Shown one piece after another: positions 299 to 23,394 of a stretch of DNA of 54,920 bases. The DNA comes from a virus. Taxonomy: Duplodnaviria; Caudoviricetes. The first letter of the stretch is position 1, and the number at the start of each line of letters is the position of its first letter. The DNA lies in IMG/VR virus record IMGVR_UViG_3300025410_000024, positions 1 through 54,920 of that record, one strand, 5' to 3'. Below the pieces are notes generated by a model. That model was not told where the DNA came from and ran no database searches. It was given only the letters and a program-made list of their open reading frames with translations. A program made the translations under genes and the position numbers.

Positions 299-327
299 TT
301 GACAGGACTGTGGATTCACAGTATAAT
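299..327 (+). promoter_or_regulatory. sigma70 consensus promoter for the tRNA
   Basis: TTGACA 299-304, 17-nt spacer, TATAAT 322-327; palindrome ACTGTG-GATT-CACAGT (307-322) lies in the spacer. Confidence 0.9.
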
Positions 328-350
328 AAGTATTAGAAGCAAGTATAAGT

Positions 351-427
351 GCGCTTGTAGCTCAGTTGGTTAGAGCAGAGGACTCATAATCCTTTGGTCG
401 CGGGTTCGAGTCCCTCCGAGCGCACCA
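351..427 (+). tRNA. tRNA with CAT anticodon, most like tRNA-Ile2 (lysidine type); Met possible
   Basis: Cloverleaf: acceptor GCGCTTG/CGAGCGC, D-arm GCTC/GAGC, anticodon arm GAGGA-CTCATAA-TCCTT, TTCGAGT T-loop, encoded CCA. Confidence 0.93.
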
Positions 428-674
428 TATATACTGTAGACCAGTATATACACTATGTACAAACCGCAAGCAGTATGATATAGACTGTATAGTACAGTGG
501 TAGTCCGATCGCTAGGCACTGTATGATGGACAGATGAAGGTAGGATCATAGATCCCCTGCTAGTACAGCTGAACCAGAGACCGTATTCTTTCGGCGGTTA
601 AGTCTAGACTATAAAAAGTCAGGAACAATCTGGGCGGGACAGGGTCAGGACACTTGCTTAGGCTCTGTACTATG

Positions 675-713
675 AAAGCACTACTTTTCTTAGGGAATGT
701 AGTGCTTTTGTTT
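675..713 (+). terminator. rho-independent terminator
   Basis: AAAGCACTAC...GTAGTGCTTT stem followed by TGTTT. Confidence 0.7.
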
Positions 714-714
714 G

Positions 715-732
715 ACTGTGGATTCATACAGT
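715..732. promoter_or_regulatory. LexA(SOS)-box-like palindrome
   Basis: ACTGT-GGATTCAT-ACAGT matches CTGT-N8-ACAG. Confidence 0.4.
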
Positions 733-903
733 AATACTAGAGTAGTATAGTACTTTAGTACTGTTGCGTAGGAGCAACGGTGAAAGTGCCAGGGGTGTGG
801 CGTTTTATACACATATGAGTTGGAGGGTCATTGTGAAAAATGGTTGTCCAAACTGTAGAATGTTGTATAATTATGGCTTACACACTAAAAAGGAGCTAGC
901 ACT

Positions 904-1161
904 ATGTTTAAACTCACCGATGCACAAAGCCAGCAAATTAACAACAGCGCATACACACACGACTACGAAGCAGAAGCTGTTGCCATATACGAAAGTACGG
1001 GCAACGACGGCATAGATGTGTTTACCGAGCGTTTTGAGCAGGAAACTGATATCGCACAACGAGCAGACTCGGAAGACATTGGCGGGCTTATCGTGTACTA
1101 CAAAGGCCAGCAGTTACTAGCGTTTTACGACTACGAGCGTTTCGTCGGTACTGTATTCTAA
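904..1161 (+). CDS. small acidic early protein
   Basis: Own promoter (844-871) and AAGGAG SD. Confidence 0.85.
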   Translation: MFKLTDAQSQQINNSAYTHDYEAEAVAIYESTGNDGIDVFTERFEQETDIAQRADSEDIGGLIVYYKGQQLLAFYDYERFVGTVF

Positions 1162-1239
1162 ATAGTTGACTAAAAGGGCGGGTCATTGACAGCCGGCCCG
1201 TTTTGTTGTATAATATGGGTACACAGGGGAGGAAGCACT

Positions 1240-1569
1240 ATGAGCACCGCACGTAAGAAACGTTCAGATCGTACACATATCATCTATGAGCTCGTTGTGA
1301 ATGGGCTTAACTACATCGGAGTCACTGCCAAGACTGAAAGTACTGTACTTAAAAGTGTTCGTGTTCGTGCTAATAAACACTTTTATCGCGCAAAAACCGA
1401 AGGCAAGGCTTGGCTATTGTGCGAAGCATTGAGAGAGCTTAATAGCAAAGAAGAAATTGAAATACGTGTACACGAGCTTGTTAGAGGCAAAGCGGCAGCT
1501 CATCGTCGTGAAGTTGAAATACGTAGAGCTATTAACCCTGCGCTGAATACGGATATTAGGGGTGACTAG
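1240..1569 (+). CDS. GIY-YIG-like nuclease domain protein
   Basis: IIYEL...NYIGVT, downstream R, E and PALN; start corrected to ATG 1240 after GGAGG. Confidence 0.65.
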   Translation: MSTARKKRSDRTHIIYELVVNGLNYIGVTAKTESTVLKSVRVRANKHFYRAKTEGKAWLLCEALRELNSKEEIEIRVHELVRGKAAAHRREVEIRRAINPALNTDIRGD

Positions 1570-1621
1570 TTGACAGCGTGAGTGTTTTCGGTTATAATAC
1601 ATACACTAAAAAGGAGCAAAG

Positions 1622-1792
1622 ATGTTTTACAGCAACAAAGAATACAATTTCCAGGTACAAGAGCTCGTAGATCAGGGAATGAGCCTAACAGAAGCAGGCG
1701 CTATAGTAGAACAGCGTATGGCTCAGGACGAGGTAGAGTACAACGAATGGGTTGTAGAGCAGTTCAACCAAACACAAAAGGAGATGGCATAA
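1622..1792 (+). CDS. 56-aa acidic early protein MFYSNKEY... (not in ORF track)
   Basis: Promoter 1570-1598, AAGGAG SD, TAATG coupling to next gene. Confidence 0.8.
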   Translation: MFYSNKEYNFQVQELVDQGMSLTEAGAIVEQRMAQDEVEYNEWVVEQFNQTQKEMA

Positions 1793-2169
1793 TGCGCAAA
1801 GAATACGATGAACTTGCCACTTACGAGCGTGATGGTTATACTATTATCGTGGATCGGACCTGGGAGGATGTGAGTCCCAGGGATCTGTTTGATGATTCAG
1901 TTATGGATGTTGAAGAGATTTGCCGTAAGATCGACAACTACACACTGGACTGGTTTATGCTTCGTGTACGTGTACTAGTGGATGAACACGAGCTGGCCAG
2001 AGAATATGTAGGTGGGTTCTTGTACGAAGATGCCCGTGAGGTACTACGAGATGGTACAGCAGAGGAAATGATTGCTGAAGCTATGATCACAGCAAAAAGA
2101 GAGGTCTATCGTATGTATAAGAAGTTCCAAGAACTCAGCTTTGCTGTTGATCGTGAGGGTGTTGTTTAA
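1792..2169 (+). CDS. hypothetical early protein MRKEYDEL...
   Basis: AAGGAG SD, TAATG overlap; start corrected from 1582. Confidence 0.85.
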   Translation: MRKEYDELATYERDGYTIIVDRTWEDVSPRDLFDDSVMDVEEICRKIDNYTLDWFMLRVRVLVDEHELAREYVGGFLYEDAREVLRDGTAEEMIAEAMITAKREVYRMYKKFQELSFAVDREGVV

Positions 2170-2259
2170 TCACAACAAATACCCTTACTCAGTGTAGGGG
2201 TATTGACAACCCTCCATTTTAGCGTTATAATACACACATACACTAAAAAGGAGCGCACT

Positions 2260-2529
2260 ATGTTTTTAAGTAACACACCCGCAAAAGCAAAATTAACTTT
2301 TAACAAAAAACTAAAAGTCTACAAGCTCGTTGTCGCGTTTAATGTACATAAACGCTTAGTTAAAAATAAATGGGGCGAGGAAGTATATAAATTTGCTTTC
2401 CCTGTACAAAAACAATGCGCTTATGTTAGCGGGGACATTAACGCAGAAGCTCTCTCAGAGGAGTTAACTAAATTACTACCTCGCGTACAAGAAGTGTTGC
2501 GTACAGACAACATTACATTAGTAGAGTAA
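2260..2529 (+). CDS. hypothetical early protein
   Basis: ATG after AAGGAG; the track's TTG start is the -35 box. Confidence 0.8.
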   Translation: MFLSNTPAKAKLTFNKKLKVYKLVVAFNVHKRLVKNKWGEEVYKFAFPVQKQCAYVSGDINAEALSEELTKLLPRVQEVLRTDNITLVE

Positions 2530-2604
2530 AGTGTAAGGGCTTTGCTAGACAGCAGAGCCTTTATGCGTTATAATACAGTTATACTAACACAAAAGAGGAA
2601 CACT

Positions 2605-2781
2605 ATGTCAAAACATCATTTAGTAGTATTTGCAAATTTTGCTAGAGACACAGGCATGACGCTTGTAGAGACTGTAAAATACATAGGGGACAACTACGAC
2701 GAGCTCGATGAGGAGCTTGTACAAGCATACGACGACACTTACATGGAACTTATGCAGTTTTGTAACACACAAAACGCATAA
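2605..2781 (+). CDS. small acidic early protein (likely paralog of 11552..11722)
   Basis: Promoter 2546-2574, GAGG SD. Confidence 0.8.
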   Translation: MSKHHLVVFANFARDTGMTLVETVKYIGDNYDELDEELVQAYDDTYMELMQFCNTQNA

Positions 2782-2870
2782 CCCTAGACCCGCAAGGGTC
2801 TTTATAGCAAAGGGTTGACAATTGGACAGTCCCTCGCTATAATACACACATACACTAAAAAGGAGCCTCT

Positions 2871-3194
2871 ATGTTAACAGTTAAAGATATTGTAAAAGAA
2901 GACGACTGCACAACTACACACTACACTTGCAATGAGGAAGTAACACTTGCTGGAGACAGTATTTGGGACTGTACACTTACTGGAGTAACAGTAACAGACA
3001 TTGTAGTACACGAGTACGATGACTACAAAGAGATGGGTGTATACTATACAGTAGACGGCGAGGAAGTAGACGAAAGTTGGCGTATGTACACAGACAGCGG
3101 AATGGAAAAAGCAGTTAGCACACTACTAGGCTATAGAGTACACTTTACAGAGCAGGGAATGCAAAACAACGGTAGAGCGAGTATGGAGGCGTAA
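2871..3194 (+). CDS. acidic hypothetical early protein
   Basis: Promoter cassette and SD. Confidence 0.85.
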   Translation: MLTVKDIVKEDDCTTTHYTCNEEVTLAGDSIWDCTLTGVTVTDIVVHEYDDYKEMGVYYTVDGEEVDESWRMYTDSGMEKAVSTLLGYRVHFTEQGMQNNGRASMEA

Positions 3195-3276
3195 CAGCAA
3201 CACACAATAGCCCGCCTATTGTGCGGGTTATTATTTTATGTTATAATACACACATACACTAAAAAGGAAAAGCAAA

Positions 3277-3456
3277 ATGACACTACAAGAATTTGAAGAC
3301 AAAATGAACACATACGAGCTCGACGATGCTTATGCAGAGTACATTATGGAACACACTAGCATTGGCAATGACCATATGCTTATTGCCGCAATGGAGCGTG
3401 GCGACTTCTTTGAGGACTTTATGGACACGATGGTAACAGAGGATATTAATGCTTAA
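3277..3456 (+). CDS. 59-aa highly acidic protein MTLQEFED... (not in ORF track)
   Basis: Promoter 3219-3247, AAGGA SD, open frame to TAA 3454-3456. Confidence 0.8.
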   Translation: MTLQEFEDKMNTYELDDAYAEYIMEHTSIGNDHMLIAAMERGDFFEDFMDTMVTEDINA

Positions 3457-3664
3457 CGTTTTGAAATGGGCAGGCACTGCCTTTACTATAGGCGGTGCAC
3501 TTGCTACTAGTTTAGGGATTGATCCTGTTAACATAGTACTGTTTAATTTAGGAACAATTTGTTGGTTGTGGGCAAGTATTAAAATGAAAGACCGACCATT
3601 GTTTGTGGTTAATGTTGCCCTCTTGCTCATTTATGTTTTTGGTGCTATAATACGTTTACTTTAA
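3449..3664 (+). CDS. small membrane protein (about 3 hydrophobic segments)
   Basis: Hydrophobic 71 aa, GAGG SD. Confidence 0.75.
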   Translation: MLNVLKWAGTAFTIGGALATSLGIDPVNIVLFNLGTICWLWASIKMKDRPLFVVNVALLLIYVFGAIIRLL

Positions 3665-3678
3665 CAAAGGAGATAGTT

Positions 3679-3882
3679 ATGTCAGGAATCTACGACACAG
3701 TACAGAACCCAATCCCCTACAGTGGCTTATTCACAGAGCCTACACTGGAAGAGATAAACGCACTGATCGAATCTATGCCACAGACACACAGGCGTAATGC
3801 TTACTTGGTAATGATGTATACACTGAATCGTTGCCACAGACTTGTAGAAGACAATATTTTAAGCAAAGAAATATTTGCTTAA
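3679..3882 (+). CDS. hypothetical protein
   Basis: AAGGAG SD. Confidence 0.8.
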   Translation: MSGIYDTVQNPIPYSGLFTEPTLEEINALIESMPQTHRRNAYLVMMYTLNRCHRLVEDNILSKEIFA

Positions 3883-3944
3883 AATGGTTGACAAGGGAGC
3901 AATCTCTTGTTATAATACATACTTAAACAACAAAGGAGCGCACT

Positions 3945-4181
3945 ATGTTTTCATATAGTTACAGAACATCCCGTCCAGTTACTAGCAAATTGTTGGATAA
4001 CTTAGAAGAAGGCCTATACGATAAAGATCGTATGATCGCAGACTTGCTGGGCTGGATGAGCGAGCGAGATGTAGCAGAGTTTGCTCGTGCCAATGATTAC
4101 ATCGTAGCACAGGACGAAGACGAGTATGATGGTCAGCCTGATGAAGCCCAAGAGTGGGAGTCCTTTGACCCAGATTGCTAA
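3945..4181 (+). CDS. hypothetical protein with acidic tail
   Basis: Promoter cassette and SD. Confidence 0.85.
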   Translation: MFSYSYRTSRPVTSKLLDNLEEGLYDKDRMIADLLGWMSERDVAEFARANDYIVAQDEDEYDGQPDEAQEWESFDPDC

Positions 4182-4250
4182 TAACCCTAGAGGTTGACAG
4201 GGATTGCGGTCCCTGTTATAATACATACTTAAACAACAAAGGAGCACACT

Positions 4251-4577
4251 ATGGATATTGAAACACTTCGCAGAGCAATTTTTAATGGTAACTGGTCCAA
4301 TGATGATCTTAACAGTATGGCGGATGCACTCAAGTGGGCCCGAGCAGACTTGACCAAGAGAACAAAGAGAACGTTGACTCTAGGCGACACCGTTAACTTC
4401 ACGTCTAGCAGAACCGGACGCAATGTCACCGGAATGGTTGTGAAGATCGCACAGAAGTATGTCACAGTCCGCACCATAGAGGGCTTGTGGAAAGTGCCAG
4501 CCAATATGCTCGAAAAGATTGAAGAGCCCAGTCCAATGGACGACTTCAACTATGTTGGAAGCAGACATCACTATTAA
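4251..4577 (+). CDS. hypothetical protein, SH3/KOW-like C-terminal pattern
   Basis: LGDTVNF...GMVVKI...VTV...WKVP; promoter cassette. Confidence 0.8.
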   Translation: MDIETLRRAIFNGNWSNDDLNSMADALKWARADLTKRTKRTLTLGDTVNFTSSRTGRNVTGMVVKIAQKYVTVRTIEGLWKVPANMLEKIEEPSPMDDFNYVGSRHHY

Positions 4578-4645
4578 CCCTACAGGTTGACAGGGCTTTG
4601 GGGCCCTGTTATAATACACTTACACAGACACAAAAGGAGCACACT

Positions 4646-4903
4646 ATGACATCAGCATTGACAGCGTATGTAGATCGTAAGAATGCTTTCGCAGACATTT
4701 TCGGACAACGGCAGTTGAGCCTACAGAGTGCCGAAGATAGGCAAAAGATTGCCAGTAGCATTGACGCAGACTTGAGCCCAGAGAACTTGACTTGCGATGG
4801 CGAACTGCCCCGCGCACAGGTTCAAGCTCGCTATAAGGCTCTGCGTGCGGCGGCCAGCCAACTACAAGCATTGGACCCATCAGTTAGTTTTTACGAATAT
4901 TAA
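4646..4903 (+). CDS. hypothetical phage protein (LSPENLTCDGE)
   Basis: Start corrected to ATG after AAGGAG. Confidence 0.8.
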   Translation: MTSALTAYVDRKNAFADIFGQRQLSLQSAEDRQKIASSIDADLSPENLTCDGELPRAQVQARYKALRAAASQLQALDPSVSFYEY

Positions 4904-4914
4904 GGAGCAGACAA

Positions 4915-5133
4915 ATGGACGAAAAGGTTTATGAGCATGAGGTTATCACAACTGTACGAATTACAGTTCGTAGCCTAGATCCTATGCTGAACAAAGAGCG
5001 GTTCTTGGAGGACTACAACTATCTAACAGACTTCAGTGTCTTGTTAGGAGGCGAGGACTATCCTCGTGTGGTACAGACTTTTGTTATCAGCGATGAGATT
5101 GAATACATCGATCGGGAGATTCAAGATGCATGA
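4915..5133 (+). CDS. hypothetical protein
   Basis: TAAGGAG SD. Confidence 0.8.
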   Translation: MDEKVYEHEVITTVRITVRSLDPMLNKERFLEDYNYLTDFSVLLGGEDYPRVVQTFVISDEIEYIDREIQDA

Positions 5134-5269
5134 TCTAATTGAACTAGCACTAAACCAGATAGTGCGAGATGTTGAAAATTGGGACTTGACTGCCATTGAA
5201 GAGCTTTTGAGATTTGTACCCGAAGAAAATTTGATTGCTTACTTACCTGAGGAGATTAGAAATGCCTAA
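5126..5269 (+). CDS. 47-aa hypothetical protein MHDLIELAL...
   Basis: GGGAG SD, overlaps upstream stop. Confidence 0.7.
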   Translation: MHDLIELALNQIVRDVENWDLTAIEELLRFVPEENLIAYLPEEIRNA

Positions 5270-5837
5270 CTGGTGCAACAACACACTCGAGATTACACAC
5301 AGTGATCCTGCCATGATTGAACGTGCTAGGTCAGCCTTTGCTGACGGCAGACTGTTGGATGAGTTCCACCCAGTGCCCAATGACCTGAAGATCGTGGCAG
5401 GCCGTGTGGGCGCCGACGATGATCAAGCACAGAAGGATCTTGTGGCACAGGAACAGGCCAACCGAGCCAAATACGGTTATGCCAATTGGTATGACTGGTG
5501 TGTCAACGAATGGGGCACCAAGTGGGACGTTGGTGGCAACGGCTACGAAGCACAAGATATACCTAATGGGTTAATCATGACCTTCGACAGTGCCTGGGCT
5601 CCGCCCGTCCGTGCTATGGAACAACTTGTAGATTTAGGCTTTGATGTTCGTTTGATGTATTACGAACCCGGCATGGCCTTTTGCGGTGTATGGGAAAACA
5701 ACGATGACGACTACTATGAAATTGGTGGTATGAGTTCGAGTGCTATTGCGGCTATGTTGCCTGCAGAATTAGACGAAGCATTTGGTATCAGCGAGCAGGT
5801 TGCTGAGTATGAAGCGGAGGAGGCCCAAGATGAGTGA
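5262..5837 (+). CDS. YubB/DUF1281-like ferredoxin-fold protein
   Basis: MPNWCNN, WYDWCVNEWGTKWD, FDSAWAPP, YYEPG motifs. Confidence 0.8.
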   Translation: MPNWCNNTLEITHSDPAMIERARSAFADGRLLDEFHPVPNDLKIVAGRVGADDDQAQKDLVAQEQANRAKYGYANWYDWCVNEWGTKWDVGGNGYEAQDIPNGLIMTFDSAWAPPVRAMEQLVDLGFDVRLMYYEPGMAFCGVWENNDDDYYEIGGMSSSAIAAMLPAELDEAFGISEQVAEYEAEEAQDE

Positions 5838-5903
5838 TGCTATTCAATGGATGGTTGACCAATTGACGAAATGATTGTATAATACATTTTTAGGAGGACA
5901 CAA

Positions 5904-6116
5904 ATGGCTACAGTAAAAAATTGGGACACAGACGAAGAGGTAGTAGTTCGAGTCGGCGACTGGGTCGGCTTTAAGTGCGATGTCGAGCAAAGCGGGGAAA
6001 TTATTCGCATCGAGGGCAATAGACTGTACTTGAGATCTGGTGTTATGGGCTTCCAGGGCGGGTATATTGGGGGACAAACGGAAACAGTTGAGAGAGCTGA
6101 CGACTGTTGGATTTAA
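5904..6116 (+). CDS. small beta-rich (SH3-like) hypothetical protein
   Basis: AGGAGG SD, promoter 5855. Confidence 0.8.
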   Translation: MATVKNWDTDEEVVVRVGDWVGFKCDVEQSGEIIRIEGNRLYLRSGVMGFQGGYIGGQTETVERADDCWI

Positions 6117-6195
6117 ACAACAAAGACCCTGCAGGTTGACAGGGTATTGTTTCGGTTGTATAATTAAGGCTTACACACACTAAAAGGAGCAGGAT

Positions 6196-6441
6196 ATGGG
6201 AATGTGGACCACCGATAACCAGGACACTATGAGCGTTGTACTCAAAGCATTCAGCGATGCGTCCCGACGCAACTATGACAGCCACGCATTTGAAGCAGGT
6301 TACTTGCAGAGTGTTATTGTTTCAATCTTACCTGACTTGCCCAAACGCAAGCAGAATAGTTTGATCAACGAAATGATCAAAGCCGCTCAAAAGCAAGAGA
6401 AAGAAGTACTTGATAAAATACTTGACGGCGTTAAGGTTTGA
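6196..6441 (+). CDS. hypothetical protein
   Basis: Promoter cassette and SD. Confidence 0.8.
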   Translation: MGMWTTDNQDTMSVVLKAFSDASRRNYDSHAFEAGYLQSVIVSILPDLPKRKQNSLINEMIKAAQKQEKEVLDKILDGVKV

Positions 6442-6480
6442 AGTTATAATTTAATTTTACACACACACTAGGAGCACACA

Positions 6481-6966
6481 ATGGGAACACGAAGCAGAAT
6501 CGGCGTAATGCACGGAGATGTCGTTAAATCAGTTTACTGTCATTGGGACGGTTATCTTGAATACAACGGCGAGCTCTTGCAAAAACACTACAACTCAGCC
6601 AAAGCCAACGAACTTGTATCGCTCGGCGACTTGAGCTCACTGCGCCCTGAGATCGGCGAGGAGCATGCCTTTAGTCACTTTGACACAGATATATCCAGCG
6701 ATGAATACGAGAAACAGTTTGGCGAGATGTGTACCTTTTACGGACGCGATAGAAAAGAAAGCAACACAGAATTCAAAACAGACACAACATTCGAAGCATT
6801 CTTTGATCGTTGCGTAGGTTGTTGCGCAGAATGGTACTACGTAATGAATGACGGTGTTTGGTATTGCGGTAACACATATGAAAGCGACTCACGCTTTTAC
6901 AAGAAGCTAGTTCCATTATCAGAAGCATTGGCCGAAGTGCCTGATATAATGGGAGTGCAGGTGTGA
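6481..6966 (+). CDS. phage protein with YCHWDGY motif
   Basis: MGTRSRIG...YCHWDGY...YGRDR pattern; AGGAG SD. Confidence 0.85.
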   Translation: MGTRSRIGVMHGDVVKSVYCHWDGYLEYNGELLQKHYNSAKANELVSLGDLSSLRPEIGEEHAFSHFDTDISSDEYEKQFGEMCTFYGRDRKESNTEFKTDTTFEAFFDRCVGCCAEWYYVMNDGVWYCGNTYESDSRFYKKLVPLSEALAEVPDIMGVQV

Positions 6967-7136
6967 CAGGTTATGCAAGCAAGAGGGCGGCGACCCTCTC
7001 CCGTATACCAACTGATGAGTTAAAACAACAATTGGTATCACTAACAGAAAGTCCTAGTCGTAGTACTTTCGATGAGGTTTGGATCAGTTTACTTGAACAA
7101 GAAATTTTTAAAAGGAAAGACAATGAGCAAGATTAA
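6963..7136 (+). CDS. 57-aa hypothetical protein, GTG start (not in ORF track)
   Basis: GGAG SD, GTGA overlap, fills the gap exactly. Confidence 0.6.
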   Translation: MTGYASKRAATLSRIPTDELKQQLVSLTESPSRSTFDEVWISLLEQEIFKRKDNEQD

Positions 7137-7305
7137 AGATTTGGCATATGATATTGAACAATTGTACATCGAAGGTTATAGTCCTAAGAGTATTGCTTTG
7201 CAACTGGACTGTCCTTTGGAATTGATTTATGATTGGTTAGAGTCTAACAATGTTGCAGAAAACTCACAGGAGGAATTAAGCCCATTCGAAACAATCAATT
7301 CTTAA
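7123..7305 (+). CDS. small helix-turn-helix protein
   Basis: LYIEGYSPKSIALQLDCPLELIYDWL; start corrected to MSKIKD. Confidence 0.65.
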   Translation: MSKIKDLAYDIEQLYIEGYSPKSIALQLDCPLELIYDWLESNNVAENSQEELSPFETINS

Positions 7306-7403
7306 TTCAAAAAATGGTTGACAACTAACCCAAATAGTTGTATAATTAATGTATGTTCAAAATAAAGAACATATTTTTACACACACAGAAAAGGAAATTT
7401 AAA

Positions 7404-7814
7404 ATGTCTACAAAGTTATTTAAATGCGCAGGTGTTAGCAAACGTAATGGTGCTTTCAAAGCTCGTTTCGCAAGTGATATGACTCGTGTTAAGGTTCTTG
7501 CCAAAACTGGAAGTTCCGATATTGATCTCATTGAGTTGAAAGAGCCAATGACCAAGGAAGATGCTATTGCGTATCTATTGAAGATTAATTTCGATAATGG
7601 TAACGCTTTGATTCGCACTGCGCTTGAAGAAGGTCTTGAGAAGAGATTGCCATCTGCCAAAGCACCTAAGGCTACAAAGTCTAAGCCTAGCCTAGATGCG
7701 ATTGCGGCTCGTGGTAAGGTTGCAAAGTCAAAAGCAAAGTCTACTGCGGTCACACAGCCAGCAGACACTGAGTTGGATGACAAGCCATTTGGCTTTGAGA
7801 AAGAGGCAGTTTAA
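7404..7814 (+). CDS. basic protein with Lys/Ala-rich tail, possibly DNA-binding
   Basis: AAGGA SD; KAPKATKSK...KSKAKS tail. Confidence 0.75.
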   Translation: MSTKLFKCAGVSKRNGAFKARFASDMTRVKVLAKTGSSDIDLIELKEPMTKEDAIAYLLKINFDNGNALIRTALEEGLEKRLPSAKAPKATKSKPSLDAIAARGKVAKSKAKSTAVTQPADTELDDKPFGFEKEAV

Positions 7815-7918
7815 TCTACGCTATAAGAACTGTTCCTGGATACTTCCGGTTTAACCGCACTAGGTCCTGAACAGTTCTTATATACCGTACTGCGGGGTAT
7901 TGGTCAGAAGGAGCGTTT

Positions 7919-8137
7919 ATGAGCAGATTGGCATACATTGGTAGACCTTGGGTTGCATTTGATCCAACAGTGAAGAATCATAGGCAGTGGTTTGCGGAGT
8001 TCCAAAAGTTTGGGACCTGGGGTAAGTGTCCTGTCCGATTTATTGTGGCAGATGATCACGGTGATTTGATCACTATGATTCAACGTAGGTTAATTGAATA
8101 CTACGTAAACAAAGAATTTGGTAAAATTAAAGGTTGA
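7919..8137 (+). CDS. hypothetical protein
   Basis: AAGGAG SD. Confidence 0.8.
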   Translation: MSRLAYIGRPWVAFDPTVKNHRQWFAEFQKFGTWGKCPVRFIVADDHGDLITMIQRRLIEYYVNKEFGKIKG

Positions 8138-8203
8138 TCTTGTTGTATTAATACTGTAATATTAATCATAACTGCAAAGCAGTCTTTAATTAAGGAAAAC
8201 AAA

Positions 8204-8479
8204 ATGATTATCAAAAAATTGAACAAAGAAACTAAAGCATACAGACTATTCAAAGCTCTCCAAGCAGGCGAGCGCATTACACCAGCAATGGCACAACACA
8301 AGTTCGGTATTAAGAACCTGAGTGCCGAAGTTAGCCGTGTACGTCAATTTGGTTTTGCTGTTTATCGTAAGACACGTAAAGCAGGCAATGGCGTTGAGGT
8401 TGTTGAGTACGTAATGGGTACACCATCACGCGAGATCGTTGCCGCTGGTTACAAGGCTTTGGCTCTTGGCCTAGTTTAA
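8204..8479 (+). CDS. winged-HTH putative transcriptional regulator
   Basis: ALQAGERITPAMAQHKFGIKNLSAEVSRVRQFGFAVY followed by a beta-wing. Confidence 0.7.
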   Translation: MIIKKLNKETKAYRLFKALQAGERITPAMAQHKFGIKNLSAEVSRVRQFGFAVYRKTRKAGNGVEVVEYVMGTPSREIVAAGYKALALGLV

Positions 8480-8593
8480 GAGTCGCTCCAAGTCTTAGGG
8501 CGGGGTAGTGTCCCCCTAAGCCATAGACGTTTCGCTCCCGTCTATGATGTTAGTGTGGAAAGCCTCTATCTTCGGATAGGGGTTTTTCTTTTT
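8477..8593 (+). ncRNA. candidate 3'-UTR small RNA with two UCGCUCC motifs and a terminator
   Basis: Hairpins 8494-8520 and 8522-8546 (loop TTTCGCTCC); TCGCTCC also at 8483-8489. Confidence 0.45.
8559..8593 (+). terminator. rho-independent terminator
   Basis: GCCTCTATC-TTCG-GATAGGGGT then TTTTCTTTTT. Confidence 0.9.
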
Positions 8594-8657
8594 AACCCTA
8601 CGATTGACAGGGTTATTCATTTTTGTTATAATATAGTCATACACACAGAGGATCTCA

Positions 8658-9059
8658 ATGGAACACTACATAGAAGCAACTCCTAAAACAAAAAGATATA
8701 TCGAATCACTCTTGCCTTCGATGCTTTCCCAACTAGGGTTGACTCGCAGTCGTAAGCTCTTACACATCAAGGTAGACCGAGAAGCGGATCACCCAGGCAC
8801 CTGTATTCCTTTCCTAGGAATGAACACTATGCTGATCGTGTTACAGCCAAACAAAGACCTAGCCCAGTTTGGAGTCACTCTAGCACACGAATTGACCCAT
8901 GTGGCCCAGTTCGCCAAAGGTATTCTACAATGCACACCTAAGGGAAAACGCTGGAAAGGTAAGTTCTACGGAAACAAAACCAAGTATCTAAATCAACCCT
9001 GGGAGATACAGGCCTTTGCTCAACAGGAAATTGTATTCCGTAGGGCAATAGAAGAATAA
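8658..9059 (+). CDS. putative zinc metallopeptidase (HExxH)
   Basis: TLAHELTHVAQF...QPWEIQA. Confidence 0.8.
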   Translation: MEHYIEATPKTKRYIESLLPSMLSQLGLTRSRKLLHIKVDREADHPGTCIPFLGMNTMLIVLQPNKDLAQFGVTLAHELTHVAQFAKGILQCTPKGKRWKGKFYGNKTKYLNQPWEIQAFAQQEIVFRRAIEE

Positions 9060-9125
9060 CCCTACAGGTTGACAGATTATTCCAAACGCGTTATAATACA
9101 CACATACACTAAAAAGGAGCAGACA

Positions 9126-9437
9126 ATGAAACTACACATTCAAACTCAAGTCTACGAAAACTACGGCGCACACGACTGGGATGGTGTGGGATCTTGCCCA
9201 CAGTATTGGAAAGCCAAAGGCGGTAACGATTACTTTGTTCCTAAGGTAAAGAATGCGGAAGAAGCTACTGCCGCAATCATGTGCCTGCGTGAAAAAATTG
9301 AAGAGAGTAACGAATACTTTAGAGAAAACATCATTGGATGGGATCTTGTTGATAATAAGTTTCGCACAGAATTTGAACAAAGCCAACTGGAACACGAAGG
9401 CCAAATCCGCTTCCCAGCAAAGGTATTAACCTGGTAA
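9126..9437 (+). CDS. hypothetical phage protein (ENYGAHDWDG...PQYWKAKGG)
   Basis: Start corrected to ATG after AAGGAG. Confidence 0.85.
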   Translation: MKLHIQTQVYENYGAHDWDGVGSCPQYWKAKGGNDYFVPKVKNAEEATAAIMCLREKIEESNEYFRENIIGWDLVDNKFRTEFEQSQLEHEGQIRFPAKVLTW

Positions 9438-9503
9438 CCCAGTGGTTGACAGGGTTATTGGTTTGAGGTTATAATACACACATACACTAAGGAGGAGCCT
9501 AAG

Positions 9504-9833
9504 ATGCATACAGTAGAACTAGATACTAAAGAAGCCCCAAACAAATGGTGGGCACTACAAGATCGCAGAATGCGGAACATTGCCAACGCGAGCCTGTATT
9601 CAGATAAACAGAAGGTTCGTGCAGAGCGCATGAAGTTGGCATTAGAAATGTTATACACAGGCAAAATCTACGATATCGCATTTGGCAAGCGTAGTATCAG
9701 CGTTAAACTACAAAGTGGCGGTAATATCCGCAATCGTAAGGAATTGAGCTTATTAGAAGCAGACTGGAGTGCCGAAGGCATATACAAAAAAGCCACAGAG
9801 CAGGGCGTACAGTATCATATCCCTAGAGCTTGA
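9504..9833 (+). CDS. hypothetical protein
   Basis: AAGGAGGAG SD, promoter. Confidence 0.8.
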   Translation: MHTVELDTKEAPNKWWALQDRRMRNIANASLYSDKQKVRAERMKLALEMLYTGKIYDIAFGKRSISVKLQSGGNIRNRKELSLLEADWSAEGIYKKATEQGVQYHIPRA

Positions 9834-9886
9834 CGGGTTATTGAATTGAGAGTATAATACACACATACACTAAAAAGGAGCACACT

Positions 9887-10264
9887 ATGTCAGATAAACT
9901 CAAAGACATTGACAGCAACCGACTAGGCGACTACCTAGAGGATTACTGTAACGAGGATTTGAACAAGCGTCTACATAAGTTCATGGTTCTAGATGACCCT
10001 GCTAACATAGAGAACATACTGGAAAAGGCGGACTTTGAAGACATTACTAACGAAGATATCCTAGTAGGTATTACAGTGGCAGAAGCTACCTTAGTCCAAG
10101 TTAACAAGGTGCTCAAAGCACAGGGCATAGACTTCCATTTCCGCCGTTTTGACTCTGTAGATTACGATGCCTATATGCTGGTTCATAACAAAGAAAACCT
10201 TAAGGCTACGGCAGAACGAGTGCGCGGTACACGACGCCATTATGGCCCGACCTCACCGTTCTAA
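9887..10264 (+). CDS. hypothetical protein
   Basis: Promoter cassette and SD. Confidence 0.8.
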   Translation: MSDKLKDIDSNRLGDYLEDYCNEDLNKRLHKFMVLDDPANIENILEKADFEDITNEDILVGITVAEATLVQVNKVLKAQGIDFHFRRFDSVDYDAYMLVHNKENLKATAERVRGTRRHYGPTSPF

Positions 10265-10333
10265 AGACCCTAAAGGTTGACAGGTTATTCAAAAGGCGTT
10301 ATAATACATACATCGCAACAAGGAGCACACACT

Positions 10334-10546
10334 ATGGGATACCGCGTACTAGACACCGTAGACTATATGAGAAACAAGTATGGTCCACGCAAGGGACTTG
10401 AAGGTCCCTTCAACTTCTCCGGTCGTGTCCTGTACTATGATCCCAAGGAAGGTTCCTACTATGATCCGACCACTGACTTCTATGTCAGCAGGGACGAAAT
10501 GGACTTCCTCAACAACGAATTGATGCGTAAATTGGAGCGAGCATGA
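10334..10546 (+). CDS. hypothetical protein (YYDP repeats)
   Basis: Start corrected; YYDPKEGSYYDPTTD. Confidence 0.8.
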   Translation: MGYRVLDTVDYMRNKYGPRKGLEGPFNFSGRVLYYDPKEGSYYDPTTDFYVSRDEMDFLNNELMRKLERA

Positions 10547-10728
10547 AACGGATTGACCCTAGCCTAAACCCACTAGAGGTTATGATTATTGCGGAACTAC
10601 TGGCAACGGATAATATAGAGCATTACACTATGCGACCTGGCAACGATTGCGTCTGGGTATCATATAGTCAATTGGAAACCTACTGGATATTTAGAGAAGG
10701 TAAATTGGTTGACATTCAGATTGATTAA
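10543..10728 (+). CDS. hypothetical protein
   Basis: ATGA overlap, GGAG SD. Confidence 0.75.
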   Translation: MKRIDPSLNPLEVMIIAELLATDNIEHYTMRPGNDCVWVSYSQLETYWIFREGKLVDIQID

Positions 10729-10764
10729 CAGTATAATACACATATACACAAGCAGGAGTCTACA

Positions 10765-11010
10765 ATGAGAGAGAAATTAACGGTAGAAAAACTAATAGAA
10801 ATCTTAACCAAGGTAGAGGATAAAACCCTACTTGTAAGGATGTCTATGAATAATGAATACGACGCATCTGTGTCAGCGGATATGGTAGATGTTGTAGACT
10901 ACGGATCCGGTCCTAGGCTCTACATCAGCGACACATTGCCTTGGAAAAGAGTTGACGACACCACCTACGATGAGAATGGAAATATCGTTGACTTATCAGA
11001 TACAATCTAA
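10765..11010 (+). CDS. hypothetical protein
   Basis: AGGAG SD, promoter 10709. Confidence 0.8.
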   Translation: MREKLTVEKLIEILTKVEDKTLLVRMSMNNEYDASVSADMVDVVDYGSGPRLYISDTLPWKRVDDTTYDENGNIVDLSDTI

Positions 11011-11019
11011 GGAACAGAT

Positions 11020-11187
11020 ATGGAAGACGCTGTAGAATTACATTGCACCTATGATGAAACAGAATTGCTGTGGCACGTTTGGTTCCCTCATCCGTTGGGT
11101 GGAATGAATGTACTAGAGTCATTTGACAACGAGGATGATGCTCGCAGATTTTGGCAGGAACAAATCGACAGTGCCGATGAGGTATAG
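11020..11187 (+). CDS. 55-aa acidic protein MEDAVELH... (not in ORF track)
   Basis: TAAGGA SD, open frame. Confidence 0.7.
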   Translation: MEDAVELHCTYDETELLWHVWFPHPLGGMNVLESFDNEDDARRFWQEQIDSADEV

Positions 11188-11188
11188 T

Positions 11189-11296
11189 ATGAACGGAATT
11201 AAATTATTTTTGACAATATTAGGATTATTCATAGGAGCTATCTTGCTACTATTGGCAGGGTGGTATTTGGAACAATTGGTTAGGGAATGGCTATGA
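11189..11296 (+). CDS. 35-aa single-TM peptide (not in ORF track)
   Basis: GAGGT SD; LFLTILGLFIGAILLLLAGWYL; ATGA coupling to next gene. Confidence 0.65.
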   Translation: MNGIKLFLTILGLFIGAILLLLAGWYLEQLVREWL

Positions 11297-11514
11297 ACAA
11301 ATGGGATAACGATAATTTAGTATGGATGCTGACCTGCTCGGAGTCAGAGTTTTCAGAGTGGTGCAATCAGGCCTCCAATGACGATATTGCCTATGCCCTA
11401 GAGTTAATGGGTGCTAGAAAAGCAACCCTAGCCCTGTACGAAGCTGAGTTGATGGACGATGTTGCGAATTTACAACAGGCCAAAGAAGTACTTGATCGTT
11501 TTAGGTTGAAGTAG
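11293..11514 (+). CDS. hypothetical protein
   Basis: ATGA overlap; start MNKWDND. Confidence 0.75.
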   Translation: MNKWDNDNLVWMLTCSESEFSEWCNQASNDDIAYALELMGARKATLALYEAELMDDVANLQQAKEVLDRFRLK

Positions 11515-11551
11515 TATAATACACACATACACAAACAAACAGGAGCACACT

Positions 11552-11722
11552 ATGATTACCCAAGCACTAGAAACAGTTACAGCAATCAGCCAAGTATTAC
11601 AGATGCCTATGTTAGAGACTTTGCTGTACATTAGAGAGCACACAGAAGAATTCAGTCTCACAGAGTTGCGCGATTACTACATCGTGATGGCAGACTTTGA
11701 ACGCCTGTTGACACCTGCTTAA
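11552..11722 (+). CDS. 56-aa protein MITQALET... (not in ORF track; likely paralog of 2605..2781)
   Basis: Promoter 11492-11520, AGGAG SD. Confidence 0.8.
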   Translation: MITQALETVTAISQVLQMPMLETLLYIREHTEEFSLTELRDYYIVMADFERLLTPA

Positions 11723-11763
11723 TTTCGCAGTATAATACATTTACTTTAACAAAGGAGCAGACT

Positions 11764-11856
11764 ATGTTAGTAGAAGCATTTATGTTATCTTTTCCATTAT
11801 GGTTCATTTTGCTGGCAATGCTAATGGCAATTGTAGCGGTTGACGGAATGAAATAA
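11764..11856 (+). CDS. 30-aa single-TM peptide with its own promoter (not in ORF track)
   Basis: Promoter 11708-11736, AAGGAG SD; MLVEAFMLSFPLWFILLAMLMAIVAVDGMK. Confidence 0.7.
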   Translation: MLVEAFMLSFPLWFILLAMLMAIVAVDGMK

Positions 11857-11898
11857 ATCGGTTATAATAACCACATGTTAAGCAAAAAGGAGTTGAAT

Positions 11899-12048
11899 AT
11901 GTCAAACGCAAATAACGTCAGCAAATTTATTGTTTGGGTAGGCGGCGTAGCTGATTATGAAGGCGATGATTTAAATCAGGCCAAAGCAGTCTATAAAGAG
12001 TGGATTTCACAAAACTACGATGATGTCATTTTGGAAGTAGTGGCATAA
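11899..12048 (+). CDS. 49-aa protein MSNANNVSKFIVWVGG... (not in ORF track)
   Basis: Promoter 11840-11868, AAGGAG SD. Confidence 0.75.
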   Translation: MSNANNVSKFIVWVGGVADYEGDDLNQAKAVYKEWISQNYDDVILEVVA

Positions 12049-12142
12049 TCACACTTGTTGCTAAAAAACAACACTTTTCGGTTGCCCAAAAACACAAAAT
12101 CGGTTATAATACATACATCAACAACGCATTAAGGAGCACACT

Positions 12143-12502
12143 ATGTTCGCACTAGCAACCAAGGAAGCATTCAATTTAACAGCAGTACAAGACGCGCTCA
12201 ACGAAGCAGGCATTCAAGCTCGCACAGCGGCCAAAGACTTCTACAGCAAACACGGTGATCGTGATGCTTGTGGCTTTGCTTGGGTCAACGTGTACGGCGT
12301 ACGTTCAAACTCAAAGCTGGGCAAGGCCTTACAGGCCGCAGGCTTCCGCAAAGACTACACAGGTGCCTTGTGCTTGTGGAACCCCAGCCAAATGGGCACA
12401 CAAAGCATCTCAATCCTGGAAGCGGGTGCTGTGGCCTACGCAGATGTGATCAAACAGCGCCTAGGACTTGAGCAGGTCTACGCAGGATCAAGATTAGATT
12501 AA
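12143..12502 (+). CDS. hypothetical phage protein (CGFAWV motif)
   Basis: DACGFAWV...SRLD; TAAGGAG SD. Confidence 0.85.
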   Translation: MFALATKEAFNLTAVQDALNEAGIQARTAAKDFYSKHGDRDACGFAWVNVYGVRSNSKLGKALQAAGFRKDYTGALCLWNPSQMGTQSISILEAGAVAYADVIKQRLGLEQVYAGSRLD

Positions 12503-12518
12503 GGGCGGTAGTTGTGTT

Positions 12519-12557
12519 TACCAGGCAGGAGCGCCGTAAGTCCTGGTATTTTTTTTT
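12519..12557 (+). terminator. putative terminator
   Basis: TACCAGG/CCTGGTA stem followed by a T9 run. Confidence 0.6.
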
Positions 12558-12567
12558 GGAGTCGACA

Positions 12568-12807
12568 ATGATGTCAATGAAAATGAGAGCTTTTTGTGAT
12601 GCTATAGTATATACCGTGGCTTTGATCCTGGCCGCTGTGGCTATTAAGGCGGCAGGTGATTGGTTAGAGGCCAATGCCACTATAGAAGAACTACACACCT
12701 TTTGTAACCTGTGCCTGATAGGATTTGCTGTATATATGTTTTACACATTCCGATTGAGCCAACTGGAAACCCGGGAAACATTGAAGAAGTTTTCGGATAA
12801 ACTGTAA
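12568..12807 (+). CDS. small 2-TM membrane protein
   Basis: GGAG SD before ATG 12568; two hydrophobic segments. Confidence 0.65.
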   Translation: MMSMKMRAFCDAIVYTVALILAAVAIKAAGDWLEANATIEELHTFCNLCLIGFAVYMFYTFRLSQLETRETLKKFSDKL

Positions 12808-12872
12808 TTGACTGCTACAGTGAATCACAGTATAATACACACTTGTTAAATAAATTATCAAAGGAACCAACA

Positions 12873-22275: not shown

Positions 22276-23394
22276 TTAACTTCTATACAATACTTTGTCA
22301 AATGATCCGTAGTACGTTGGATCGTCATTGTTGCCAGATGCAGGAGCAGTTCCTGGAATATACATTACTCGAATGTAGGTAAACAAGCCATTGAAATTTA
22401 TATAATCAATACCATTGAACCTGTTATAATTTAAAGTTGCTACGGTTGCATACTTTCCAAAGTCTGATGCATTATTTGATAAAGTTGCTTGAATGTATAC
22501 AGTTCCAATATAGTTGGTCATATACATTGCTAATGTATGTAATGCTGTGTTACTTTTAAATTCTGGATAAGCATAAAACGGACCACTTTTATGTTCGTAC
22601 AAATATGTATCTTGATTATAACTTTTTAAGAAGCTAACTATTTCTTGACTAGGTTTTAATCGAGGATATACTTCTTCAGTAAGATGCACGGTTCCTGAAA
22701 TTCCGTAATATGTATTTGCATAAGCAGGCAAATATGTATTATCATTTGGATCTTGATATACTACACTATATGTATATTCTCCGCGCTCGAGATTAACAGT
22801 ATCACTTTCTGTGAATGTAAGTTCACCTAATCCTTTTAATCCTATTGTGTTGATTACAACTCCTGTACTTGTAGATACAGGTTTTAATGTATAATTGTTC
22901 AAAGTAACAATATTAGTGATGGGTGAAAAAACAGTAGATGTTGTTATTGAAGATGTAGTAACTGTGGTAACAATTGTAGCAATTGATCCTGTACCTATAC
23001 TTAAGATAGTGGAGTTGGCAGCAATACCATATCCAAAGACCGCTTGGCCTACTGATATATTAGAAACATCGTCGAACGTTAGCACCTGGCTAATACTACC
23101 TTGATTAGCATTAACATTTAAGTATATAGAATCATCTAATACTGTAAGTTCTTTTTGTAACACTAACTCTTGACTTGTATTATCAAACATATTGAATACA
23201 AAAGTTTGTGTATTGCTAATTGGTAATAATTTTTGATCACTGTTTTTAAACTGGATCCTTATCTTGTTTTTAATACCTTTTTGTATTTTTAAATCTCGTT
23301 GGTACATAACTCGGTTAATCCCTAAAACAGTTTCGTCCAAATCTAATATCACGTCGAGTGTATTTGGATATAAATAGATTGGTAAATTTTGCAT
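22276..23394 (-). CDS. putative virion structural protein
   Basis: Beta-rich with Thr-rich insert; late promoter 23400-23405. Confidence 0.6.
   Translation of the reverse strand: MQNLPIYLYPNTLDVILDLDETVLGINRVMYQRDLKIQKGIKNKIRIQFKNSDQKLLPISNTQTFVFNMFDNTSQELVLQKELTVLDDSIYLNVNANQGSISQVLTFDDVSNISVGQAVFGYGIAANSTILSIGTGSIATIVTTVTTSSITTSTVFSPITNIVTLNNYTLKPVSTSTGVVINTIGLKGLGELTFTESDTVNLERGEYTYSVVYQDPNDNTYLPAYANTYYGISGTVHLTEEVYPRLKPSQEIVSFLKSYNQDTYLYEHKSGPFYAYPEFKSNTALHTLAMYMTNYIGTVYIQATLSNNASDFGKYATVATLNYNRFNGIDYINFNGLFTYIRVMYIPGTAPASGNNDDPTYYGSFDKVLYRS

Follow-up and report, generated by a model that had tools for sequence, protein, structure and literature searches.

Directly downstream of a gene for a wHTH protein, in the early region of a large uncultured phage, a short run of hairpins precedes a terminator, and the question raised by this locus is whether the RNA simply ends a transcript or acts on the phage's own early messages. 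A reading made from the sequence alone had favored the latter, proposing that the loops expose an anti-Shine-Dalgarno (anti-SD) word, GCUCC, complementary to the early ribosome binding sites (RBS), and that the regulator and its 3′ UTR RNA together shut off early translation and leave leaderless late mRNAs unaffected. The window, by which we mean the whole stretch of DNA analyzed, comprises 54.9 kb of an IMG/VR virus record, the completeness of which CheckV puts at 15%; relatives reach 353-355 kb. It encodes a 1008-amino acid tail sheath, a large terminase and a DnaB-like helicase, on the basis of which the source phage, which is uncultured, of freshwater origin and lytic-type, is classified as a jumbo myovirus. 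Going by the terminase, its closest cultured relative is the Pseudomonas phage PA5oct (55.8% identity), and all of the homologous loci derive from freshwater, as far as run labels tell. The early block occupies positions 1-13 kb on the + strand; beyond it, the window is mostly given over to genes for structure and replication, located on the - strand. A DNA search of positions 7800-9200 against 50,697 phage records returned no match, and in a tblastn search of phage records with the wHTH protein the sole match was to Pelagibacter phage HTVC008M (36% identity). None of the 22 sequencing runs listed by a search with the region was an RNA run, a result that is neutral on expression.

The wHTH transcript and its 3′ element

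The wHTH gene (8204-8479, + strand) codes for a product of 91 amino acids, which matches PF14090 (HTH_39; e-value: 5.2e-6) and phrog_4973 (e-value: 2.7e-14), and carries the element as its 3′ UTR. The gene probably has its own weaker promoter, to judge from a putative sigma-70 sequence for the wHTH-plus-element transcript, TTGATC-17-TAATAT (8134-8162, + strand), which scores under the promoter-scan threshold and has a -35/-10-like counterpart at the matching place in relatives, for example TTGATT-17-TATAAT in locus L058. A small 5′ hairpin, AACUG-N-CAGU (8170-8183, + strand), is predicted by folding before the RBS, which reads AAGGAAA and not GGAGC; the hairpin and an AAGGAAA-type RBS precede the gene in 26/26 loci inspected, with GGAGC in 0/26. 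The complete upstream unit (8134-8203), comprising the weak -35/-10 pair, the hairpin and the RBS, is kept in 25 relatives, and its -35/-10 pair overlaps the stop codon of the previous gene. Further upstream, between genes one and two of the operon whose 3′ end is formed by the element, there is a long near-perfect hairpin (7818-7883; region z -3.1) with a 13-bp outer stem, AUAAGAACUGUUC/GAACAGUUCUUAU, which could represent an RNase III-type processing site. The next gene after the element (8658-9059) encodes a protein of 133 amino acids that contains an HExxH motif and matches, below threshold, the metallopeptidase families DUF6782 and Peptidase_M78/IrrE-like; its leader contains neither GGAGC nor ACACUA.

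The element itself (8480-8596) folds into two hairpins followed by a UUCG terminator, in agreement with the tandem hairpins described in the sequence-only reading. Four motif copies are exposed in it, namely two of UCGCUCC (the B motif) and two of (G/U)UAGUGU (the A motif). The two UCGCUCC copies that had been reported are both present on the + strand. The first of these (8483-8489) is single-stranded, lies four bases past the stop codon, has an opening energy of 0.6 kcal/mol and holds its position in 13 distinct relatives. The second (8532-8538; opening energy 0.0 kcal/mol) is situated at the 3′ edge of the loop, UUUCGCUCC, of hairpin 2 (8522-8546, + strand), and the perfect 8-bp stem attributed to this hairpin, CATAGACG/CGTCTATG, was recovered in the fold. 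The A motif is a second exposed word that the earlier reading had missed. One copy, GGUAGUGU (8504-8511), is located in the loop of hairpin 1 (8494-8520, + strand; opening energy 1.3 kcal/mol), and the other, GUUAGUGU (8549-8556, + strand; opening energy 2.2 kcal/mol), is single-stranded between hairpin 2 and the terminator. The intrinsic terminator (8557-8596, + strand), identified by both the fold and a terminator scan, consists of a 14-pair stem, a UUCG loop and a U-run; it starts 78 nt past the wHTH stop and is shared with the upstream coding gene.

The four motif copies are readily opened, at 0.0-2.2 kcal/mol, compared with 6.4-12.2 kcal/mol for the stem segments. The 120-nt RNA as a whole forms three hairpins at -44.7 kcal/mol (z -4.3), and 0/200 shuffles were equally stable. 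Within the window alone, the TCGCTCC heptamer is seen four times where 1.97 would be expected, a difference that is not significant (4 reached by 11/100 shuffles), and the significance of the motifs is drawn from the relatives.

Conservation of the loop words among relatives

Retrieval with the wHTH protein yielded 96 homologous loci, comprising the window, 15 viral loci and 80 metagenomic loci, the latter being the best 80 of 413 that were confirmed by tblastn. An element of this kind is present in about 30 of the 96. Both the GCUCC and UAGUG words occur in 22/96 3′ UTRs (AB class), while two GCUCC copies and no UAGUG are found in 7/96 (BB class). GCUCC only is present in two more loci, of which L059 terminates at the contig end and L107 has the word in a different hairpin. 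The GCUCC of L095 was left out of the element count as a chance match, being located ~130 nt past the stop and beyond the terminator. The remaining 3′ UTRs harbor a plain terminator or other hairpins.

The A hairpin is represented by 23 distinct versions, in all of which GTAGTG is invariant. Its stem cells are paired in 82% of cases, against 58% in shuffles, and both sides of the stem have changed in 8/9 pairs. The covariation score is 0.60 versus 0.19, with 0/500 shuffles reaching 0.60 and slid controls remaining at or below 0.26. Twelve distinct versions of the B hairpin were found, with at least nine different stems and with GCUCC flush with the 3′ arm, at the 3′ edge of the loop. Contigs of four public DNA runs, compared over positions 8150-8700, add two further B-hairpin stems and a 6-nt deletion in hairpin 1. 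RNAalifold predicted 0 pairs for the 12 B hairpins because their loop lengths differ and their 5′ arms are out of register; single folds do show these hairpins.

The placement of both words in hairpins is concentrated behind the wHTH gene. Within 150 nt past the wHTH stop, a stem of 5 bp or more encloses GTAGTG in 23/25 distinct contexts, compared to 30/418 (7%) elsewhere in these loci. Similarly, CGCTCC is found in loops in 12/25 distinct contexts within the same distance versus 10/166 (6%) elsewhere, the other 13/25 being the conserved single-stranded site past the stop codon. The second A motif, AUGUUAGUG, is kept in L006/L021, L003/L018, L033, L034, L036, L037, L043 and L045, and some elements, in L018 and L042, contain three to four A hairpins with differing stems. 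Conserved flanks, AAGUCC and GGCA, are furthermore observed in hairpin 1. Conservation of the loop motif had been set beforehand as a test on which the anti-SD proposal could fail, and the outcome was favorable, with CGCUCC kept in loops and in single strand as the stems change. Judged by sequence comparison, the element is a real, conserved and structured RNA element of a new type.

A covariance model, R1, retained three pairs only. It matched one copy in each of the genomes G001, G003 and G005 and none in G002, while in G004 two places were matched, the A hairpin of the wHTH element and a second copy. In the window, R1 matched the known site only, and a paralogous second copy is absent from the 54.9 kb. 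Second copies of a half-module can be observed behind an unrelated gene at L018:14808-14900 and L020:6430-6550, where the layout consists of UUGCUCC, a long hairpin with a GGUAGUG loop, and a terminator.

A more distant group of loci (L050, L052, L053, L057, L074, L076, L078, L079, L081, L085, L091, L094, L096, L105, L108 and L110) carries, within the first 60 nt past the wHTH stop, the sequence (A/C)UCGCUG, a hairpin whose stem covaries and whose loop resembles AUUCA(A/C)AC, and then ACAC. The UCGCUG element of this group has no obvious leader complementarity, and the next gene often starts 5-7 nt past its -10 box, giving it a leaderless appearance. In L048, L049 and L077, UAGUGUUA pairs in cis with UAACACUA within the first 45 nt past the wHTH stop, with the A word and a leader-like word forming the stem of a single hairpin.

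Early leaders and their relation to the element

The early block contains 22 sigma-70 promoters of the form TTGACA-17/18-TATAAT, 16 of them perfect and six with one mismatch, all located within positions 299-12836 on the + strand (12.5 kb). One of the 22, at 299-327, drives a tRNA-Met gene (351-427). A near-identical leader of ~25 nt stands behind each early promoter, and the unit resembles a reused cassette. The leader pattern is ACACUA-(A)n-GGAGC-ACACU-AUG, in near-copies of ACACACAUACACUAAAAAGGAGCNNACUAUG, and ACACUA precedes the SD near the 5′ end of the leader and recurs, as ACACUAUG, where it spans the start codon. The statement that GCUCC is the exact complement of the GGAGC in most early RBSs holds for 13/22 leaders behind TTGAC-N17/18-TATAAT promoters on the + strand. 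These include, from the leader scan, the example of a proposed target ACACACAUACACUAAAAAGGAGCAGACA-AUG (9098-9128, + strand) and 12 others on the same strand, in which GGAGC starts at 1613, 2250, 2862, 3935, 4241, 4636, 6186, 6471, 9494, 9877, 10322 and 11754. Over the whole window 70 GGAGC words were found against 44.7 expected, a number reached in 0/100 shuffles. The leaders are also unstructured, as had been claimed, with a mean MFE of -1.9 kcal/mol versus -5.7 kcal/mol for random 40-mers of the same region.

The B motif (YGCUCC) complements the SD word GGAGC(R), while the A motif (UAGUGU) complements ACACUA, such that the loops UAGUGU and CGCUCC match two sites around the RBS of the proposed targets, ACACUA and GGAGC(G). 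Among the window leaders, GGAGC is the third most frequent 5-mer and ACACTA the sixth most frequent 6-mer. In the nine element-bearing genomes tabulated, GGAGC ranks 1-6 among leader 5-mers, and ACACTA ranks 1-12 among leader 6-mers in 8/9, the exception being L058 with rank 41. The antisense of a full leader would read A-B-A, and the elements read B-A, A-B-A or B-A-B-A, always with A last before the terminator. A search of the sense strand for GCTCC followed by TAGTG within 40 nt gave 11 matches, eight of them in elements and three by chance elsewhere, while the antisense-strand matches to this pattern are the leaders themselves.

The complementary stretches are only 5-7 nt each, and the duplex between a motif and a typical leader amounts to -7.6 to -10.8 kcal/mol per site. 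When the whole element was paired with the 22 leaders in RNAduplex, which takes no account of folding within each RNA and tolerates large internal loops, the mean of -17.4 kcal/mol was not significant, being matched or bettered by 48/300 shuffled elements and by 33/300 random-target sets.

The joint variation of element and leaders can be followed on a tree of the wHTH protein, the resolution of which is limited by its 86 columns. The BB clade is nested in the AB clade, beside the L034/L035/L045 group, and its hairpin 1 is homologous, with the same flanks and CGCUCC instead of GUAGUG. ACACUA upstream of the SD is present in 0/25 BB leaders and, genome-wide, in 0/18 leaders of the complete BB genome G001, versus 8/9 leaders of L045 in the sister AB group. 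The sister of the AB/BB clade is G002, a genome of 99% completeness. No element is found in it genome-wide, the best model hit (E 0.066) lying inside a coding region, and its leaders use AAGGAAC, with GGAGC in 2/47 and ACACUA in 2/47. These two comparisons, BB versus L045 and G002 versus the AB clade, form the strong contrasts that link the A loop to ACACUA. Two weaker contrasts are provided by L068 against L069 and L084 (ACACUA in 5/11 versus 2/11 leaders) and by L067 against L064 and L055 (1/4 versus 0/5). In neither of these weaker contrasts does GGAGC follow the element (8/11 versus 9/11 and 3/4 versus 4/5, respectively). GGAGC leaders also occur in loci without an element after the wHTH gene, namely L082 (4/4), L084 (5/5), L069 (4/6) and L055 (3/3), and among GGAGN..ATG sites GGAGC accounts for 48/104 in element-free loci versus 158/296 in clade A. 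The complete BB genome G001 has GGAGC in only 4/18 SD-bearing leaders, and in L058, where the A loop is present, ACACUA is found in only 2/13 leaders. Taking the BB/L045, G002, L068 and L067 contrasts together with the GGAGC exceptions, the association between element and leaders, as read from these sequence counts, is good for the A word and weak for the B word, and involves few independent events.

The late region was surveyed through its 41 ORFs of at least 110 amino acids outside the early block. In 16 of these, an SD is lacking and a TAAATA-like AT motif is located 2-17 nt ahead of the start; an SD-like word is present in ten and GGAGC in one. Examples of SD-less late or structural starts in the window (17000-54900) are those at 23394(-), 42769(-), 38781(-), 48392(-) and 48422(+). 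The TAAATA/ATAAATA-like motif of the late ORFs ends 3-8 nt before the ATG; it resembles the late promoter of phage T4, TATAAATA, and is placed as for leaderless mRNAs. It is plausible from these starts that the late mRNAs are leaderless, and the SD-less late ORFs would fit late messages that are blind to an anti-SD RNA.

Candidate functions and known systems

We judge the chances to be about even that the element is a 3′-UTR-borne modular antisense RNA which represses the phage's own early 5′ leaders. Starting from the observed exposure, conservation and complementarity of the motifs, we infer pairing in trans, with repression and its timing as the proposed consequences. The structured, terminator-ended RNA would build up from an early transcript, either as a cleaved fragment or as part of the intact wHTH mRNA. 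A half-module, consisting of a single-stranded word and the neighboring loop word, would clamp a single leader at two sites, with the hairpin arm spanning the 0-5-nt spacer of the leader, and the RNA would in this way clamp the SD plus one or both ACACUA sites. The SD and start codon would be hidden from 30S subunits, initiation would be blocked and decay possibly triggered. The early class would be silenced progressively, while the late genes, many of which are SD-less, would escape, as would the wHTH gene because its RBS is of the AAGGAAA type (26/26 loci) and not GGAGC.

A broader proposal is more tentative, and we place its chances somewhat below even. The shared 5′ address ACACUA - GGAGC - ACACUAUG may mark the early mRNAs, and a multi-loop RNA may read this address at two to three points, silence the whole early class and time the switch to SD-less, possibly leaderless, late messages. 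Loop swaps would then accompany leader changes, with reader and address co-evolving. The original idea of a regulator coupled to an anti-SD RNA is upheld in part: the loops are conserved, another leader word has its complement in another conserved motif, and in two sister contrasts the motifs vary together with the leaders. On the other side, GGAGC is also present in relatives that lack the element, and the duplex-energy test was null. If the proposal is correct, large lytic phages would have a new layer of developmental control, in which an RNA shuts off translation of the whole early class, and the uniformity of the early leaders in this phage group would be explained. The leader tag and the multi-loop RNA would furthermore provide a compact programmable pair for synthetic regulation.

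It appears rather unlikely that the conserved loops are instead binding sites for a phage or host RNA-binding protein, with a role in 3′-end protection, autoregulation of the wHTH operon or as an RNP scaffold, and that the complementarity to the leaders is incidental. Such a protein would account for conservation in excess of what pairing needs, in that the C before GCUCC is conserved, yet mismatched to the commonest leader GGAGCA, and that the flanks AAGUCC and GGCA are retained. It would also accommodate the occurrence of GGAGC leaders without the element, and the distant group, which keeps UCGCUG and a covarying hairpin without GCUCC and thereby gives a hint that something besides anti-SD pairing constrains the site. 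However, it leaves unexplained that two unrelated loop words complement two of the commonest leader words, that these words stand in antisense order, and that the A loop was lost together with the ACACUA leaders. There is moreover no candidate protein, and the other two proteins of the operon gave 0 Pfam family matches.

An action in cis, whereby the element tunes termination or read-through to the next gene or pairs with the GGAGCG SD (7910-7915) of the gene that precedes it in the operon, is improbable. CGCUCC is a perfect 6-nt complement of this GGAGCG, and the element is immediately followed by a strong terminator, with another consensus promoter 50-120 nt further on. However, that promoter serves the next gene on its own, both in the window and in relatives, no partner for the A motif is present in the operon's own leader, and a second copy of the element is found behind an unrelated gene. 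We consider it quite improbable that the structure comprises only a terminator with stabilizing hairpins, the loop sequences of which are functionless and inherited by descent. The plain terminator of relatives outside the AB and BB groups and the non-significant heptamer count in the window alone would suit this explanation, but the loops are invariant over 23 and 12 distinct hairpins while the stems have turned over, and L018 and L042 have three to four A hairpins with different stems. Neutral descent is disfavored because it would not spare only the loops. Lastly, it is scarcely credible that TCGCTCC and GTAGTGT are operator half-sites recognized in DNA by the wHTH protein, for although they are direct repeats adjoining a gene for a DNA-binding fold, the covarying inverted repeats around fixed centers indicate RNA hairpins, the motifs are absent at promoters and TCGCTCC occurs only four times in 54.9 kb.

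The antisense RNA that we prefer as an explanation belongs to no known RNA family. At gathering score, Rfam identified tRNA only in the whole window. With E up to 10, positions 8100-8700 gave sub-threshold chance hits only, including rnk_pseudo (26 bits; gathering 55) and Yfr10 (19.7; gathering 43), and none to an AbcR-type family or to the C4 family, which we take to be that of the c4 antisense RNA.

AbcR1/2 and RsaE are chromosomal sRNAs which control metabolic regulons by means of loop-exposed C/U-rich anti-SD words. The element resembles them in its repeated short CU-rich words, placed in loops or single strands before a terminator and complementary to SD regions, and where AbcR-type RNAs are characterized by at least two exposed CU-rich anti-SD words, it has UCGCUCC twice (0.6 and 0.0 kcal/mol). 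In contrast to AbcR and RsaE, it is phage-borne and combines the SD word in a fixed order with a second, non-SD word, UAGUGU. The analogy to AbcR that had been suggested earlier is therefore one of functional likeness, with no match to any Rfam family. The 3′-UTR-derived sRNAs of enterobacteria, such as CpxQ, SroC and DapZ, likewise share a terminator with a coding gene and have their seed in an unpaired stretch before it. In the present case the sRNA, and the processing or internal promoter from which it would arise, are putative, and the proposed targets are the phage's own leaders.

For PA5oct, two abundant ncRNAs are described (PMC7318152). Both were folded and inspected, and the phage was dropped as an analogue; its first 26 kb hold only one consensus promoter, and no leader or loop design like the present one. 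To our knowledge, phage RNAs that regulate the temporal program of their own phage act on single operons of temperate phages only (c4, sar and OOP). A literature search, covering titles and abstracts, returned no phage RNA directed against a whole class of early leaders or SD sequences.

Among known systems, the c4 RNA of phages P1 and P7 comes closest, being a phage-encoded, structured RNA whose short loops pair with separate mRNA sites around the RBS and block translation (PMC12197685, PMC8198154). The likeness resides in loop words which are complementary to two sites around an RBS. The c4 RNA differs in that it is released by processing and acts, in temperate-phage immunity, on a single operon (icd/ant) located downstream on its own transcript, whereas the targets proposed here are dozens of early leaders dispersed, by their sequence, over 1-12 kb.

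In the proposed biological role, the nearest analogues are RegB and RegA of T4, which bring about a class-wide inactivation of early mRNAs at their initiation regions. RegB cleaves early mRNAs at the GGAG of their Shine-Dalgarno sequences, and late transcripts resist it (PMC3014915). These T4 effectors are proteins, whereas the effector proposed for the present phage would be a base-pairing RNA.
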